Virus record (IMG/VR): IMGVR_UViG_3300035493_000198
Location: 1-30,550 of that record
Length of the DNA: 30,550 nucleotides
Reading direction: 5' to 3' (one strand)
Source: a virus
Taxonomy: Duplodnaviria > Caudoviricetes
Every line of letters begins with the position of its first letter. Within the stretch, counting starts at the first letter, position 1. Below are positions 1,493 to 29,996 of the stretch, one piece after another. The notes below the pieces were generated by a model. That model did no database searches. It was given only the letters and a program-made list of their open reading frames with translations, and was not told the origin of the DNA. The translations under genes and the position numbers were made by a program.

Positions 1493-3539
1493 GGGTTTCT
1501 ACTCCGATGGTCTGCCAGAGCTCCGGGCGGCTGTGGCTGATGCTCAGGCTGCGCACCAGGCCCCGGCGGGTGTTGCCTTGCTCCTGGTATTCGATCAGGG
1601 TGCCCGGGCGTATCATTCCGGTTTCTGGCAGCACCGGCAGCCGCAAGCTGATCTGGGCTTGCTTGCCGGTGTCGCCCAGCAGGGCCAGCCCTCGCTGGCG
1701 TGTCATGGCCGGGTCGGTGGCCAGTTCGTCGACGATGGTCGGGGCTGGGTTGGTGCCGCCGGTGGTACCGATGATGATGCGGTCGGCACGGCCCTGTTCG
1801 CCGCCGTGTACCCAGACGGCGTTATAGTCTGGCTTTTCCTGCCACTCGATGCCTTCCACCTCCACTACGTCCTCCGGCAGCGCAATGTCCGGGGTGGCGC
1901 TGCTCCAGTTCCAGGGCGCGGTCGGGTACCGGGGCAGAATCCGCAGGGTCTGGTCGGTGTCGTGGCTCTGGACATAGGCGCCGCCGGCTTCGGCGATGCG
2001 CTTGGCCGCGTCGATCCAGGTGCCGCTGTGGCTCCAAATGCCGGCCGGGATCTGCCAGTCCTCGATCTGCCAGTCTATCGTCCAGCCGATGGGTACGCCG
2101 TTGGTGGTCAGGGTGGCGTTCAGGGCCTGCTGGGCAGTCATGGCGCTGGTGTTGGTGTACTGCGTGACCGGTGCCAGGGGGGCGGCCAGGAACGCGGCTC
2201 TGCCCCGTCCTGAAACCCTGAGCCAGGATTGCCCGAACCGGCGCTCCCGCTGGATATTCTCTACCAGTACCCGCAGGGGCTCCCCGTTTATGGTGGCGAT
2301 CAGTTCCACCCGGGTGCTGCTGTCCGGGCGTACTTGCGCGAGGGCGCTGGCGGGTATCCGGGTTGACCAGCTCCACGTCCAGCTATCGGCGTCGATGCTG
2401 GCGCTGAAGTCCTCCGCTGGTACCGTGGTGCCGTCCAGCTCGGTCAGGGTCAGGGTGTTAATCACGGTGTATATCTCCCGTATGGGGATGGTGATGGTTT
2501 CAGCCGGTGGCGGCGGTTCGTCGCCGGGGCAGCCAAAGATCAGGGTTGTGGTGCCGTCCTGCTCTCGACAGAACCGCAGGGTGATCTGGTCGTCGTCCGG
2601 GGTGCCTGGGTCAACCGGAGGCGGCGGCCAGGTGGCCAGCCCGGGGGCCGGGTCGATGGCCTGGGCTTGGCGAATGCTTAACCGCAGCGCCAGCTTGGCG
2701 CCCTGGTTCGCCCGGATGGTCAGGGTGGCGGTTATCGGCTCCGCCTGCTGTTCGCCCAGGCGCCGGGTGGCCCTCAGCTTTACGGTTTCCGCATACCGCT
2801 GGCCGATGCCGTAGCCCACCCGGATGCCATGCTGGTGGTCCGTGGTGAACGACTGGCGTACCCGGACCGCATCGGCGTGGCCCAGGGTGGTGTTGCGGCC
2901 TTCTATTTTCAGGCCATGCTGGGCCTGGATACTCCGGCTGCCGGCCAGCTTGTCCGCTTGCTGCTGGCGGAAGCTCTGCCCCTTGGTGACCGGCAGGGTC
3001 ATGGTCTCCCGGGTTGTCAGGGTGGTACTGGTCCGGCGCATTTCCTGTTGACCGGTGCCCATCGGGGTCTGGCTGGCGCGGAAATTCCGCGACGGCAGGG
3101 CGGCTGCTACCCCGTCCGCGTCTGGCAGGTCCAGGTTCTGGTGGCCTTCGGCGTCCAGGGCCACGGCTCCGGCAGCGCTCGGTAGATCCGCCAGCAGGTC
3201 GCCCCGCAGGGTCTGGTCTATGGCCTGCAGGGTTATGTCCGCCAGCGTCGGTGCCGGCAGGGTGGCGTGCAGTGTGCCCATGATCGCCGGGGCGGTGGTT
3301 TCGCCTACGGCGGCCAGGGTTATATCCGGCAGCGCAGGGGCTGGCAGGCTGGTGCTCAGGGCGCCGTTTACGGTCGGGTATTCCGGCGCCACATAGCGGC
3401 CAAACTGGAGCGTTACCGGCCCGGGGGTTGGTTCCCTCGGGCGCAGCAGCTCCAGGATGATGCCGGGGTCTGGGGTAAACCGAAGGTCTACCGGCCCCGG
3501 GGTGTCATGCCTTCGCTTCCATAGCCTGAGCTTTATCAC
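1485..3539 (-). CDS. Tail tip/hub-like protein with Pro-rich repetitive N-terminus
   Basis: 684 aa ORF in tail operon; Trp-rich C-terminal hub-like region; internal peptide repeats. Confidence 0.65.
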   Translation of the reverse strand: MIKLRLWKRRHDTPGPVDLRFTPDPGIILELLRPREPTPGPVTLQFGRYVAPEYPTVNGALSTSLPAPALPDITLAAVGETTAPAIMGTLHATLPAPTLADITLQAIDQTLRGDLLADLPSAAGAVALDAEGHQNLDLPDADGVAAALPSRNFRASQTPMGTGQQEMRRTSTTLTTRETMTLPVTKGQSFRQQQADKLAGSRSIQAQHGLKIEGRNTTLGHADAVRVRQSFTTDHQHGIRVGYGIGQRYAETVKLRATRRLGEQQAEPITATLTIRANQGAKLALRLSIRQAQAIDPAPGLATWPPPPVDPGTPDDDQITLRFCREQDGTTTLIFGCPGDEPPPPAETITIPIREIYTVINTLTLTELDGTTVPAEDFSASIDADSWTWSWSTRIPASALAQVRPDSSTRVELIATINGEPLRVLVENIQRERRFGQSWLRVSGRGRAAFLAAPLAPVTQYTNTSAMTAQQALNATLTTNGVPIGWTIDWQIEDWQIPAGIWSHSGTWIDAAKRIAEAGGAYVQSHDTDQTLRILPRYPTAPWNWSSATPDIALPEDVVEVEGIEWQEKPDYNAVWVHGGEQGRADRIIIGTTGGTNPAPTIVDELATDPAMTRQRGLALLGDTGKQAQISLRLPVLPETGMIRPGTLIEYQEQGNTRRGLVRSLSISHSRPELWQTIGVETHE

Positions 3540-24744: not shown

Positions 24745-25418
24745 GCAGCACCTCCCGTCAACTTCTTAACGCTGTTTGTGATGGCGCTTTCCAGGTATTG
24801 CTGGGTACCGCGCTGGTGGATTTGTGCAACGCCCATGTCGCCGCCTCCCTGGTAAACAAGCCGGGCCTTTTCTGCATTGCCGATCATTACCGGCTCGTCC
24901 TGAGGCCTGCCGCGCTTAAAGCCTGTGTGCTGGCTGTTTTCGTGCTCGCAGGTGCCAATCAGCTTCCTCGGGAACGATTCCGGGGGCTGAACGGTGAAAC
25001 CCTGGTAAAGCTTCAGAAAGTTGTTCCGGAGAAAGGGATATTCCTTTTCATCTGTCAGGCTGATCTTCTGCCAACCCCCCAGGCGCTCGATGGCCGCGTG
25101 AATCTTCGGATCGTCAAAGACAACGGACCGGTAGTTCCCAACGCAACGGATAGCGCGATCAACCTTCGCCCAAGCTTCACCGCTGGCGGACTGGCTGCTG
25201 CCTTGGAGAAGCCGAACGATATCGGCTGGCTTCGGCGGGTATTGGCCGGTGTCAGGGTTCGTGATGTGCCGGCATAGCGCATGCTCGATGTCCTTCAGCG
25301 GAAATGAGATCAGTGCCTGGAACACCATGTAAACCACACGGGGCTCGGGGCATTTGCCGTAAACCTCGTGGGCCTGAGCCCAGATATCGCCGAAGGCTTC
25401 CAGATCAGTGGTGTTCAT
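24741..25418 (-). CDS. DUF6475 replication protein (lambda P-position helicase loader candidate)
   Basis: GQYPPKPADI and VVFDDPKIHAAIERLGGW motifs; directly after the initiator. Confidence 0.75.
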   Translation of the reverse strand: MNTTDLEAFGDIWAQAHEVYGKCPEPRVVYMVFQALISFPLKDIEHALCRHITNPDTGQYPPKPADIVRLLQGSSQSASGEAWAKVDRAIRCVGNYRSVVFDDPKIHAAIERLGGWQKISLTDEKEYPFLRNNFLKLYQGFTVQPPESFPRKLIGTCEHENSQHTGFKRGRPQDEPVMIGNAEKARLVYQGGGDMGVAQIHQRGTQQYLESAITNSVKKLTGGAA

Positions 25419-26673
25419 AGGTCACCCCCTGGTGTGCTGATGTGCGTTGCTCGTGAATGCGGCGAAGCTCGGCCGCTCGATCAAGTCCGGACTGAGCCGG
25501 TGTTTTCCGGCGCTCAGCCTTGCGCTGCAGGGCAAGCTGGGACCACTTGTCGCGGAGCTTGTCAGGGCTCTGAACGTTGGCAGACCAGAACTCGTGCTGG
25601 CGGCACCAGTCGTACAGAACGCGGATGTGCACAGGCTCCCGACCGTCCTGCTCACGCATCAGCCGGATGGTGTTTGCCCAGCGAGCAAGGTTCGGCTCTC
25701 GGGGCTTGTCCTGTCCCAGCTGATCCGCCAGCTGCCCCCACATCCACTCAGCCAGATCGAGATCGTCTTGAGTTCCCCAGTACCGGCCGCTCTGGATCGC
25801 GGCGTCAGGGCGTTCTGGCTCAGAGGTGGGCTCGATGGAATTCGGGGAGGGAGCGTCGGGCCGGTCAGGCCCGGACAATCCTTCTGCCGTAATCTCTGCT
25901 GTAGTCTCTGTAGTAATCTCTGTAATAGATTGCTCACTCAAAGCAGACTTGCCTGCCTTGGCTAGACACTCTTGTTTGTCTTGGGTAGACAAACTGGTTT
26001 GCTCTTGGGTAGCCGGACTTAGTTTGTCTTGTGTAGACAGACTGGATTGGGAAGCGCCACCTTTACGGCTATTGCAGGCGACATGGGCGGGCTGGAGGTT
26101 TTCCTCGGTATGTTCGCCACCCTCGGCCAGAGGTTTCTTGTGATCGAAGCAGAGCGCTTTTCCATGCTGGCCGGGACCATAGACGATTGGCTTCTGACAA
26201 CACCCGCAAACCATCCCATCGCGCCTTAGGACGACACTGTAATCAACGTATTCAGTCTTGGCGCCCAGTTTCTTTGCGCGCATCATCCCGGTCTTTGAGA
26301 GGCCGTTCAGGGTGGACTTGTAGGTTTCCAGGGCGTCCTCGAGATCCAGTGCCTGGGGTGAGCCAAGCAGCGCTTTCTCCAGTGCATCCTCATTGACGCG
26401 GAAGTACATCCTTGCAGGAACGCCTCGCCGCTTCTCCTCGAGGACGCCAATGGACTTGAGCGCCTTGCGGGCCCGCTCCTGTTCCCGGCGATTCATGCCA
26501 GTCTCTTCTTCCCAGTCCTGCTGAGATTTGTAGAACCAGCCTTCTTCGTCGGTAACGCGCTTGGTCCAATAGATGCACTGAGACAGCATTAGGGCACCCG
26601 CAATGCCCACACCGAGATCCACGAATGCGCGCTGAAAGGCGATCGGCCTGGCCATCAATTCAATCATGCTCAT
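25405..26673 (-). CDS. Replication initiator (O-like, winged helix) with internal HNH endonuclease domain
   Basis: N-terminal wHTH (WFYKSQQDWEEETGM); HNH C-x2-C...DHKKP...GG...N...H..CN; C-terminal FWSANVQSPDKLR. Confidence 0.85.
   Translation of the reverse strand: MSMIELMARPIAFQRAFVDLGVGIAGALMLSQCIYWTKRVTDEEGWFYKSQQDWEEETGMNRREQERARKALKSIGVLEEKRRGVPARMYFRVNEDALEKALLGSPQALDLEDALETYKSTLNGLSKTGMMRAKKLGAKTEYVDYSVVLRRDGMVCGCCQKPIVYGPGQHGKALCFDHKKPLAEGGEHTEENLQPAHVACNSRKGGASQSSLSTQDKLSPATQEQTSLSTQDKQECLAKAGKSALSEQSITEITTETTAEITAEGLSGPDRPDAPSPNSIEPTSEPERPDAAIQSGRYWGTQDDLDLAEWMWGQLADQLGQDKPREPNLARWANTIRLMREQDGREPVHIRVLYDWCRQHEFWSANVQSPDKLRDKWSQLALQRKAERRKTPAQSGLDRAAELRRIHEQRTSAHQGVTYEHH
25883..26043. 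repeat. Putative replication origin: four iterons plus four 12-bp tandem repeats
   Basis: Cores CTTGGCTAGAC, CTTGGGTAGAC, CTTGGGTAGCC, CTTGTGTAGAC at 25957, 25980, 26004, 26028; TCTG-led 12-mers at 25883-25930. Confidence 0.75.
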
Positions 26674-27413
26674 GCCGCTTGTTCCTCGCCATCAAAAAGC
26701 ATGTGTGTGTATTTGCCGTCCCAGTCCTTGCGCATGTCGAGCTGACCTTGTTCGTATTGGGAATAGAGCCACTTGGCACCCTTCTGGGTGAGCACGACCT
26801 TCTCGCAGGGACGATCATCGCGGTTGAGGTAGCGGCGTTCCGTGAAAAGCTTGTCGCGGTAGGCCGCGGCGCTCCGGTATCCGTGCTGGGTCTTCAGGAG
26901 CCGCTTGCGCTCAACCAGGAGGGGCTGAACCCGGTTCAGGTTGACGCCATTGAGCATCCGGCAGAACTCAACCGGTGTGAGCCCGGCCTTCAGGTTGGCC
27001 GCCAGATCGTTGCACACGGCGTTCAGGCGGGTGGTTTCGCCTTTGTAGTGCTCTACCTGGGCATTGAGATCTTCAAGGGCAATCCGGGCAGCCTGGCTCA
27101 GGTTGCTTGCCCATGCAGGAAGGGCCACCTTTTGTTCCAGCTCCTGCCACCGATCTACAAGGCGGGCTGTGAACTCGGGTGACAGCTGGGCGACAATCAC
27201 ATAGCTGTCACGCTTTTCTATCCAGTAGTGGGTTACGGTTTGGCCGCGGTGATTTTTAACTTCCCCCACTGGGGGACGTTGGATAACTCCGCGATCGGCA
27301 AGGCGGTCGATAGACTGCTTCACCTTGTCGTGCCGTGATTCCAACATTTCGGCAATCTCACGACTGCTCATCATCAGAGGGCCATCGTTGATTGTCGGCG
27401 TAAGTTGCTGCAT
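26670..27413 (-). CDS. Rha-family regulator/antirepressor with KilAC-like C-terminus
   Basis: MSSREIAE...RHDKVKQSI...VAQLSPEFTARLVDRWQELE; C-terminal LTQKGAKWLY; AGGAGG RBS. Confidence 0.85.
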   Translation of the reverse strand: MQQLTPTINDGPLMMSSREIAEMLESRHDKVKQSIDRLADRGVIQRPPVGEVKNHRGQTVTHYWIEKRDSYVIVAQLSPEFTARLVDRWQELEQKVALPAWASNLSQAARIALEDLNAQVEHYKGETTRLNAVCNDLAANLKAGLTPVEFCRMLNGVNLNRVQPLLVERKRLLKTQHGYRSAAAYRDKLFTERRYLNRDDRPCEKVVLTQKGAKWLYSQYEQGQLDMRKDWDGKYTHMLFDGEEQAA

Positions 27414-27416
27414 ACT
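27388..27416 (+). promoter_or_regulatory. Sigma70-like promoter, antisense to the rha leader
   Basis: TTGATT-17 bp-CATACT; the -10 overlaps the rha start codon. Confidence 0.55.
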
Positions 27417-27437
27417 TCCTCCTATCTCGTCCGCAAT

Positions 27438-27482
27438 ACCCCGGTAGGCCTGCCAGCCCATGACCCGGGGTTTTGTTTTTTT
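27438..27482 (+). terminator. Intrinsic terminator on the plus strand
   Basis: ACCCCGG/CCGGGGT stem followed by TTTGTTTTTTT. Confidence 0.6.
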
Positions 27483-27891
27483 AGGCCTCTGGCCCTTTCC
27501 CCGTAATAGCCACCCGAACTTCCCCGCCCGGCTTCACGATCTCGTCGCGCTTTAGGAATGGGTGTGTCCGAAAGTGGCAATCGTCGATTCCCAGAGCATC
27601 CGCCAGCCCATCACGGCCAGACTTGAACGCGGCAATCACGTTGTCGTCATCACGCCGGCGGCGATTCGGTGGGCAGAAGTCCAGGAACACATGAATTTCA
27701 CCGCCAGCGGCGACCAGATCGCGCAGGGGCTGCAAGTCCCACTTGCCCTGGTTGATGGCATTGCGCGCTTCGATCTTGCAGGTGTATCGGTACACCTCTG
27801 CGGCCCGGGCCCTCTTTGCCCAGTGCCCCCGGCTATTCGGGCTTAACGCCTTCGGTGGCCAGGGTAGGGTGATCTGCAATTTCTCCGGCAT
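27481..27891 (-). CDS. rusA: RusA-like Holliday junction resolvase
   Basis: LPWPP..LSPN; PPNRRRRDDDNV...K...D..ADALGIDD catalytic motif. Confidence 0.85.
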   Translation of the reverse strand: MPEKLQITLPWPPKALSPNSRGHWAKRARAAEVYRYTCKIEARNAINQGKWDLQPLRDLVAAGGEIHVFLDFCPPNRRRRDDDNVIAAFKSGRDGLADALGIDDCHFRTHPFLKRDEIVKPGGEVRVAITGKGPEA

Positions 27892-28034
27892 GACTGCTCC
27901 GCTGTCCGGTTTTGTTTTTCGTGACGTGTCACGCTATCGAATTAGTGTCAGGCCAGTTTTCAGCCATGGCCCAGGGCTACATGCAGCTTGTCATCGCTGT
28001 TTGATGCGTCGGCCGGGACACTCCCAACCCCTTA

Positions 28035-28184
28035 CGCATCTGAATGAGCCTTGACCGGATTCGAACCTGCGACGACGCCGCGGCGTCCGGAGATGCGTCA
28101 AGGGCGCGACCCTTTGGCAGTGCTCCGCTCCCACGTCGAGTGGGCGCTCTGTCCTGACTGAGCCACAAGGCTCATTCAGATGCG
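28035..28184 (-). ncRNA. tRNA-like structured RNA (tRNA-Arg-like, non-canonical)
   Basis: D-arm GCTC-AGTCAGGACA-GAGC; T-arm GCAGG-TTCGAAT-CCGGT; 5-nt anticodon loop; 54-nt variable insert; perfect 19-bp closing stem; no encoded CCA. Confidence 0.7.
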
Positions 28185-28438
28185 GGCTCCTTACGGGAGC
28201 CATTCGGACTGATCAGCGAGGGCGGTGGTCGTGAGTAACCTTGGCCTCAGTCTGCTGGCGTTCTATCGCCGGGACCCAATCCCCAGCTGCGATGTCGGCA
28301 CCTTGGCTTTCGCCTGGCCAGCTTTACCGGCTGCTTTTAATAGCGCTGCAGCTCGCGCCTGCTGTGTCAAAGAATGGGGCTCTCGCTTTTGCTAAGCTGT
28401 CTCGCGCTACACAAACCAACTTTTCAAAAGGAGGCCCC

Positions 28439-28609
28439 ATGGCCCACGAAAACAATTCCCCTGAACGTATTGCTGCCGACATACTCGTTGCGGCAATAGC
28501 GAAATCACCGGCACTTTCAATGTCTGACCCCGTGAAGCTCCCGGAGCACTACCGGGAGATCCTTGAAGGGGTCCGAAGCGTTCTCGAAGAATCACCTCAG
28601 AACCGGTGA
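28439..28609 (+). CDS. Small counter-oriented hypothetical protein (56 aa)
   Basis: AAGGAGG RBS 4 nt before ATG; TGCTAAGCT extended -10 candidate upstream. Confidence 0.55.
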   Translation: MAHENNSPERIAADILVAAIAKSPALSMSDPVKLPEHYREILEGVRSVLEESPQNR

Positions 28610-28779: not shown

Positions 28780-28864
28780 TTCACGATCCTCAATTCACTG
28801 TACAAATAACCACCCATAGTCAGGCGGGTATTTACCTTGTCCTGCTGTGGCTTAATGGAAACCA

Positions 28865-29113
28865 TCAGGCGGCCTCTCCGGAGCGCTTGTCAGCCGGCAG
28901 GCCGTCAGTTGGATTGGGGTAGATGTCTGGGCGTAACTCGTGAGGAGTGACCTGCCAGTCGGTGGCTTCGCAGACGATAAGCACCTTTTCAGCGGACACT
29001 TTTCTCAGCCCGGAAAGCCATTGATAGATCAGCCCCTGAGTCACTTTCAGGTGATCAGCGAGCTGCCTTTGAGTAACCCTGTTGCGGGCCATGTATGCGC
29101 GTAGTGTCTTCAT
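28865..29113 (-). CDS. cro: Cro-like HTH repressor (YdaS family)
   Basis: TQRQLADHLKVTQGLIYQW HTH; VTPHELRPDIY signature; divergent from cI. Confidence 0.9.
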   Translation of the reverse strand: MKTLRAYMARNRVTQRQLADHLKVTQGLIYQWLSGLRKVSAEKVLIVCEATDWQVTPHELRPDIYPNPTDGLPADKRSGEAA

Positions 29114-29150: not shown

Positions 29151-29188
29151 TAGCATCGCTATTTGTGCGAGGCAATAGTTTTGCTATT
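29124..29188. promoter_or_regulatory. Three repressor operators, consensus AATAGC-N3-GCTATT
   Basis: ATTAGCGATGCTATT (29124), AATAGCATCGCTATT (29149), AATAGTTTTGCTATT (29174); exact 25-bp period. Confidence 0.85.
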
Positions 29189-29198
29189 CAATGCAGGG

Positions 29199-29996
29199 AT
29201 GGACGCCAAACGTAAATTATCTGAAAAGCAGATCGCCGACGCCCAGCGCCTAAAAAGCCTTTGGGAGCGCGAATTTAAGGGAAAAATCTCTCAAGAAGAG
29301 GTGGCGTATCGTTGTGGGTGGAAAACTCAGGGTGCGTTTAATCAGTATCTGCACGGAAAGATCCCTATTGGACTTAATGCACTGCTCAAAATTTCCAGGG
29401 CGCTGGGCGTGGACCCTGGAGATATCTCTCCTCACTTGGCGGCAAAATTGTCGAAGCACGGGATCGCAGGCTTCGATCATTCGGCTGCCCCGAAATCACC
29501 CGGTAGCAGTAATGACGAGCTGGAGTTCTTCGGGCACATGGATGCCTGGGACAGCAGCACACCGTTGGATGAGGATGAAGTAGAGTTGCCTCTGTTCAGG
29601 GAAGTCGAGCTGGCGGCCGGAGGTGGTGCCACTCAGGTGATAGAAAATCACGGGGCAAAGCTTCGTTTTGCAAAATCCACTCTGCGCCGGGCGGGTGTTC
29701 CTGCCGAGTCAGCTGCCTGCGCGTTCGTTCGCGGTAACTCCATGGAGCCGGTCATGCCCGATGGCACCTGCGTGGGCGTGAACACCGCTGACAAAGCCAT
29801 CAAAGATGGCGAGATCTACGCAATCGACCACGGAGGCATGCTTCGGGTGAAGTATCTGCACCGTCGACCAGGTGGTGGTATCAAGATCGTGAGCCAGAAT
29901 GCGAGTGAACATCCGGTTGAAGAAGTGACTGCTGAAGACATGGCTGCCAATGTGCGCGTGATCGGGCGCGTGTTTTGGTGGTCGGTACTTCGCTAA
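29199..29996 (+). CDS. cI: CI repressor (HTH + S24 autopeptidase)
   Basis: HTH SQEEVA...TQGAFNQYL; Ala-Gly site LAAG; GNSMEP Ser and RVK Lys; ATG 29199 preferred. Confidence 0.93.
   Translation: MDAKRKLSEKQIADAQRLKSLWEREFKGKISQEEVAYRCGWKTQGAFNQYLHGKIPIGLNALLKISRALGVDPGDISPHLAAKLSKHGIAGFDHSAAPKSPGSSNDELEFFGHMDAWDSSTPLDEDEVELPLFREVELAAGGGATQVIENHGAKLRFAKSTLRRAGVPAESAACAFVRGNSMEPVMPDGTCVGVNTADKAIKDGEIYAIDHGGMLRVKYLHRRPGGGIKIVSQNASEHPVEEVTAEDMAANVRVIGRVFWWSVLR

Follow-up and report, generated by a model that had tools for sequence, protein, structure and literature searches.

The window, as we call the whole stretch of 30,550 nt that was analysed, is a provirus record (IMGVR_UViG_3300035493_000198) whose minus strand carries, after a cro-like gene, a 60-aa ORF, a non-coding block, rusA, an Ant/Rha-like gene and an O-like replication gene. 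A sigma-70-like promoter precedes cro, one such promoter being the chance expectation, and a RusA of kin that is 83% identical to the window RusA is a Marinobacter adhaerens protein. Between cro and rusA lies a tRNA-like element closed by a long helix, which we call the clamp, and bordered on both sides by other conserved RNA structures. The features of the locus are:

29163-29996, plus strand: cI-like gene, facing away from the cro-like gene
28865-29113, minus strand: cro-like gene heading the early operon (HTH families)
28810-28827, minus strand: terminator-like hairpin after cro, at the tR1 position (consensus scan only)
28211-28362, minus strand: separate conserved non-coding element of 150 nt, upstream of the tRNA-like element and common to Marinobacter-type kin whether or not these have the tRNA-like cargo
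28185-28201, minus strand: small hairpin adjoining the clamp; a hairpin with a GGAAAGA loop lies at this spot in 11 of 14 other member loci checked
28003-28040, minus strand: downstream hairpin module common to kin (L006, L008, L016), overlapping the last 6 nt of the clamp
27481-27891, minus strand: RusA-like resolvase, the first gene downstream of the element (phrog_34)
26670-27461, minus strand: Ant/Rha-type antirepressor-like gene, the second gene downstream (phrog_63, Pfam Rha)

The O-like replication protein (25405-26673, minus strand) has an internal HNH domain at residues 156-205. The plus strand has an antisense ORF of 122 aa at 28241-28609 that matches nothing in Pfam and part of whose DNA resembles stretches of L007 and L020; it is perhaps a small moron.

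The element occupies the minus strand from 28184 to 28035, and all the segment positions given by the initial annotation were borne out there: its 19-bp duplex is a perfect inverted repeat (19/19), the short arm at 28144-28130 has the 5-nt loop that had been claimed, and no CCA is encoded 3' of the acceptor. The reported single T-stem mismatch is real (A.G) and is found in the window copy only, among 12 aligned members, but an additional G-U wobble in the stem had been overlooked. The parts of the element are:

28047-28172, minus strand: tRNA-derived body (acceptor, D arm, short anticodon-position arm, insert, T arm); Rfam tRNA model 29.7 bits, family model 118.7 bits, covariation
28173-28184, minus strand: clamp extension of the acceptor, 12 bp, 5' strand; perfect inverted repeat, in-context pairing probability ~1.0
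28172-28166, minus strand: acceptor, 5' strand
28146-28163, minus strand: D arm, stem and loop; stem invariant, G18G19 retained, loop 7-10 nt among members
28130-28144, minus strand: anticodon-position hairpin of 5 bp, without an anticodon; loop variable, 3-5 nt among members
28127-28074, minus strand: insert, 54 nt
28088-28127, minus strand: insert arm, a covarying outer stem and a conserved 27-nt core (bulge, 3-bp stem, internal loop, G-rich hairpin)
28074-28087, minus strand: second insert hairpin, where a type II variable arm would be; paired, variable in sequence
28054-28070, minus strand: T arm, its T loop canonical; no variation among 12 members at 14 of 18 positions
28053-28047, minus strand: acceptor, 3' strand
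28035-28046, minus strand: clamp extension, 3' strand, where discriminator and CCA would be; inverted repeat, CCA in none of the 12 aligned members

The minimum free energy of the element is -76 kcal/mol (z -4.94), and none of 200 shuffles was equally stable. When folded within 510 nt of context, the clamp, the short arm and the insert arm pair with predicted probabilities of 0.93-1.0, the second insert hairpin with 0.77, the D stem with 0.51 and the T stem with 0.12, in a model that takes no account of tertiary contacts. The clamp form is 5.5 kcal/mol more stable than the downstream hairpin with which it overlaps, and is the predicted winner. A switch among insert, clamp and downstream hairpin via a 7-mer common to them was considered and rejected, the alternative folds having a probability of 0.00. 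As for a possible origin of the insert from the downstream hairpin, 65 of 300 shuffles resemble that hairpin as well as the window insert does, and for the insert of L143 the numbers are 2, 8 and 45 of 300 with three targets. We also rejected a coding role, in that the overlapping ORFs of 63 and 70 aa have no Pfam match and element lengths of 117, 118, 120 and 126 nt break the frame.

The Rfam tRNA model recognizes the element just above its gathering score of 29, with a long insertion, and no other Rfam family reaches its cut-off on the element, the remainder being sub-threshold chance matches. ARAGORN, run with default settings, calls no tRNA or tmRNA anywhere in the window; a tmRNA identity was dropped on this result and on the size of the insert, which is only 53-56 nt across members.

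The element belongs to a family of 13 distinct cores, the thirteenth of which (L235) was found later. There are two core types. The two Marinobacter-type members, the window copy and L022 (whose host is putative), sit after a cro-like gene in prophage early leaders; the 11 Achromobacter-type members lie downstream of cI on the same strand, as seen in the three loci whose upstream gene was scanned (L142, L145 and L147), and the RdgC of L142 groups with Achromobacter proteins. L022 was found by a D-arm pattern and is 92% identical to the window element, with different flanks. Contigs from other runs join across 28040-28179, and among the contigs listed for eight runs, including two labelled as RNA, none covers the cargo, an absence that says nothing about expression.

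Several searches delimit the family. A general D-arm/T-arm pattern matched 119 loci in a quarter of the viral collection, among them one distant relative (L115). Patterns based on the insert gave 8, 13 and 11 matches in the viral collection, 3 of the 13 being chance matches, and when the insert alone was sought with a free loop, all 11 viral matches lay within a D-arm/T-arm scaffold. A metagenome scan returned eight matches, of which five are real and three chance. With the family covariance model, members reach 119-172 bits, and nothing else in 81 sources exceeds 42 bits. The genome contig collection held no true family match (a first search gave none, and the three matches of a later one all lacked the scaffold); 151 sampled genomes held no member, the sole match of the family model being an ordinary tRNA-Arg; none was found in E. 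coli genomes; and a blastn query with the element returned short tRNA-type or chance matches, or none, from phages, plasmids and E. coli genomes. The tRNA-like element is thus a rare family. No description of it was found in the literature by full-text searches, which did not extend to subscription papers or to the supplements of large structured-RNA catalogues, where it could be listed. Among the 119 matches to the general pattern, about 42, comprising L023, L033, L035 and their kin (about 1480-1640), form one further tRNA-scaffold family, in which the anticodon region contains a nested T arm followed by a D-loop-like segment.

Conservation within the family was assessed on an alignment of 12 rows, from which the identical cores L147 and L214 were omitted and in which L235 was not included. 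We counted 37 pairs; the outer insert stem and the second hairpin were excluded because the aligner put both out of register. Paired cells make up 98.2% of the alignment at these pairs, as compared with 27-45% for control structures slid along it, and 15 of the 37 pairs show two-sided changes, a number reached by 0 of 500 shuffles, although most of the two-sided changes represent a single event between the two groups, one of which, the Marinobacter type, has only two members. Independent paired changes inside the groups occur in L022, L144, L145 and L143. The held-out L235 scored 158.6 bits and added new paired changes in the acceptor and the short arm, with one insert-loop base altered.

Conservation is unevenly distributed over the element. 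Between the two groups, identity is low in the acceptor (0.34), the extension (0.42-0.43) and the outer insert stem (0.25), all of which are nevertheless paired, the outer insert stem with 4 of 4 bp in every one of the 12 members. It is high in the D stem (1.0), the T arm (0.85) and the 27-nt insert core (0.89), where 23 of 27 positions are invariant across 12 members. The insert, whose conservation and covariation the initial annotation had named as one test of its reading, has a core that is 89% identical between groups and an outer stem that covaries; together with the compensatory changes, the conserved core upholds its view of a repurposed tRNA scaffold under selection rather than in decay. 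The hallmarks of the tRNA elbow (U8, A14, G18G19, a UUCRA T loop and G15-C48) and the 7-bp acceptor are invariant in all 12, and conservation is lowest in the anticodon-position loop, with its 3-5 nt of variable sequence. At position 73 members have C, G or A, nearly always paired within the clamp. With an anticodon loop of 3-5 variable nucleotides and no CCA encoded by any family member, the element is not a functioning tRNA, nor is it one in decay. It is very likely a functional structured RNA. A 21-nt stretch at its D arm is an exact match to a phage tRNA-Arg(UCU) in L021, and the best genome match of the family model is likewise a tRNA-Arg, so that the scaffold probably derives from tRNA-Arg.

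The element shares with canonical tRNAs the elbow nucleotides and the 7-bp acceptor (12/12), but where these have a 7-nt anticodon loop with an anticodon and an unpaired discriminator, the element has a loop of 3-5 nt and is paired from position 73 onward. Other tRNAs with extra sequence or an altered cloverleaf, such as the intron-containing tRNAs of Lak phages as reported in 10.1101/356790 and the allo-tRNAs as described in PMC5389517, keep their anticodon, whereas the element has none. The Pas sRNA preprint speaks of tRNA-like sequences only as integration remnants. The YrlA Y RNAs, in the account given in PMC4201824, likewise have D and T arms of tRNA origin, which form a module on a long stem, and occur in phages too. 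In the element, by contrast, the order is D arm, anticodon-position arm, T arm, and it is the acceptor that the long stem prolongs. No Ro60/TROVE gene was present in the five carrier prophage records (two of them at least 90% complete), as against 2 of 14 in a control, and the YrlA motif GNCGAAN0-1G was found near the 5' end of none of 12 members; a YrlA identity was rejected on these two grounds.

The element can also be compared with the engineered tRNA scaffold, which, as PMC3753655 describes it, retains the acceptor, D and T arms, has lost anticodon function and displays and protects a foreign structured RNA. The element is natural, its insert sits in the variable loop and does not replace the anticodon arm, and its ends are clamped rather than free; it may be regarded as a natural counterpart of that design. 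Among phage leader RNAs, P1/P7 C4, P4 CI and N15 CA are structured early-leader RNAs upstream of an antirepressor-like gene, a setting shared by the window copy only; unlike them, the element has no Rfam match, no complementary targets and no fixed downstream gene. C4 RNA is matured by RNase P. Helices cut by RNase III occur in phage early leaders such as that of the Qin dicBF operon, but their cargo, DicF, is a base-pairing sRNA of the Hfq type, in place of which the element has a tRNA body and insert, and cleavage of its own helix is predicted. The lambda N-leader, too, is a phage early leader with an RNase III processing site. The element is a real, uncatalogued RNA family, a variant of tRNA-like and of processed phage leader RNAs. 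It is one that annotation tools would discard as a broken tRNA, and in it selection acts on the elbow and the inserted domain while the anticodon has been abandoned.

Comparison with close kin separates the clamp from what it encloses. The closing helix measures 16-19 bp across the family. All 12 close kin leaders have the small hairpin and the start of the closing stem at the identical slot, and none of the 12 has the insert; the 150-nt element upstream is likewise present after cro in 12 of 12 Marinobacter-type kin, as matched by its motif (L221-L232). In L004 the stem arms resemble those of the window but the enclosed fold is different. Long stems number 1.24 per region on average in 17 leaders versus 0.27 in shuffles. 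Since the kin keep hairpin and clamp start and lack the insert, the slot is fixed and its cargo exchangeable, the tRNA body being one of the accessory pieces that it can hold. With other cargo in the same clamp among close kin, the locus lends itself to cargo swaps that probe the function of phage leader RNAs. The 150-nt element matches no Rfam family and is a candidate antitermination RNA of the operon.

Several observations on related leaders may be recorded here. More often than the tRNA body, the clamp encloses another RNA, branched and conserved (L006 2568-2656, L011 2261-2351, L019 2103-2183), which has no tRNA features and no Rfam match. The hairpin with the GGAAAGA loop, for which a literature sequence search gave no description, also lies shortly upstream of ordinary phage tRNA genes (L150, L151, L177, L180 and L186, about 1500). 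Citrobacter phage phiNP (L219) has an unannotated 1-kb leader after a repressor-like gene, with two long clamps (2342-2468 and 2694-2819), one of which holds two T-arm-like hairpins and the other a copy of a CAU anticodon arm. A degenerate tRNA-Met(CAU)-like gene lies directly before rusA in 7 of 17 loci scanned, with scores of 32-39 bits (for example, L011 2752-2823).

How might the element act? We propose that the early promoter transcribes it within the phage early transcript, that the clamp stacks coaxially on the 5-bp T stem to give 21-24 bp, and that host RNase III would cut the closing helix near the boundary between acceptor and extension, perhaps followed by RNase P trimming. The product would be a tRNA-shaped RNA of ~120-130 nt, in which the elbow would serve as a stable scaffold or as a second contact, and the conserved insert hairpin would be displayed to a protein partner; it would act in trans on a host protein that binds tRNA or RNA, as an accessory ligand or a decoy. 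That RNase III cut would also split the leader from the downstream mRNA. Taken as a whole, this chain, from RNase III release of a tRNA-scaffolded RNA to display of the insert to a protein, seems to us about evenly balanced between right and wrong. Its individual parts can be judged separately. E. coli RNase III substrates are described in PMC1540722 as typically two helical turns long, with coaxial helices sufficing and a minimum of 11 bp on one side; the closing helix attains about two turns, coaxial stacking being allowed, if its 16-19 bp stack on the T stem, and is by its modelled length a plausible RNase III-type helix. Mapped RNase III sites seldom fit a consensus (reported in PMC5371410), and DicF is excised from a prophage polycistron by RNase III (as stated in 10.1101/2023.04.14.536235). 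Protection of an inserted RNA by the engineered scaffolds (PMC3753655) offers a parallel for the stability that the elbow would give. That the insert is conserved in the sequence of its bulges and loops and has no antisense target points to a putative protein-binding surface.

The main rival of this mechanism is a cis role on the nascent transcript, which we consider possible but unlikely: a leader domain that is never released would, while the early transcript is still being made, bind RNA polymerase, a nuclease or a Nus factor and so promote read-through or stabilize the mRNA, a role that the cis-acting put and nut RNAs resemble. The element comes directly after a terminator-like hairpin that follows the first early gene and, like put and nut, it lies between the early promoter or first gene and the early terminators; it occurs in rightward and leftward early operons alike, and its sequence-level conservation suits a binding site, all of which fits such a domain. 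Against this, none of the 12 close kin has the cargo although the upstream 150-nt element and the clamp are kept, so the cargo is not the essential antiterminator of the operon, and the upstream element is the better antiterminator candidate. An intact elbow on a 7-bp acceptor might instead be a processing signal only, to which RNase P or another enzyme of tRNA processing would be recruited so as to cleave the polycistron, the released piece then having no job; the 7-bp acceptor stem is, by the account in PMC4201824, a major RNase P determinant for YrlA, and the upstream hairpin likewise precedes ordinary phage tRNAs. We regard this as quite improbable: it leaves the 23 invariant positions of the 27-nt insert core unexplained, the leader and trailer are paired over 9-12 bp and CCA is missing, and there are kin that have the clamp without tRNA cargo.

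The two remaining alternatives fare worse. The initial annotation had suggested a processed regulator of rusA-rha-replication expression and pointed to the C4, CI and CA RNAs. In its C4/CI/CA form this would be an antisense immunity RNA pairing with its own operon to silence the antirepressor; the Ant/Rha-like gene two genes downstream in the window and the action of c4 through complementary sequences in loops, as PMC12197685 presents it, would be in keeping with this. The suggestion fails on several counts: there is no Rfam C4 match at E<=5, a search 600 nt to each side for complements of the insert core gave, in all 12 members, a longest match no better than in shuffles (lowest p 0.08), complements of the whole element were inconsistent in the seven members tested, and the downstream genes differ among members. 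We consider it very unlikely. The reading as a decaying tRNA pseudogene, or as an intron-containing tRNA restored by splicing, is essentially refuted. An Rfam tRNA score barely above the cut-off, the T-stem mismatch of the window copy and the existence of phage tRNAs with conserved introns (reported in 10.1101/356790) would suit it, but it is contradicted by compensatory changes across groups and by an insert core as conserved as the elbow; without the insert a variable loop of 3-5 nt would be left, in which there is no anticodon; position 73 is paired, and members lack a conserved acceptor identity.

Returning to RNase III release and display of the insert, a more specific form of it would be a natural tRNA-scaffold display, in which the clamp-released, unchargeable tRNA, devoid of an anticodon, docks by its elbow on a host tRNA-binding protein with the insert as a second binding arm and inhibits an anti-phage system that senses or cuts tRNA. 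We offer this only tentatively, as a rather doubtful extension. A decoy against anticodon nucleases, as the initial annotation had it, is unlikely when taken in that narrow sense, given that no part of the element is less conserved than the anticodon loop; a decoy that works through elbow and insert may stand. If the RNA is a decoy, it would constitute an RNA counter-defence against tRNA-directed immunity, and if the display system is true, the clamp slot would do for RNA effectors what morons do for proteins, as a cassette whose content can be swapped.

The neighbourhood of the element varies. Downstream genes differ from one family member to another, and among the ORFs scanned, no gene that might encode a partner is common to all carriers. 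An amphipathic-looking ORF of 24-29 aa with a ribosome-binding site lies 138-238 nt downstream (L142-L149, L202, L203, L208 and L209); 10 of 10 Achromobacter-type members tested have it, and 0 of 2 of the Marinobacter type. Finally, L144 contains a Burkholderiales-2 RNA (2088-2162, plus strand; 76.9 bits) ~1.1 kb upstream of the family member and on the opposite strand.
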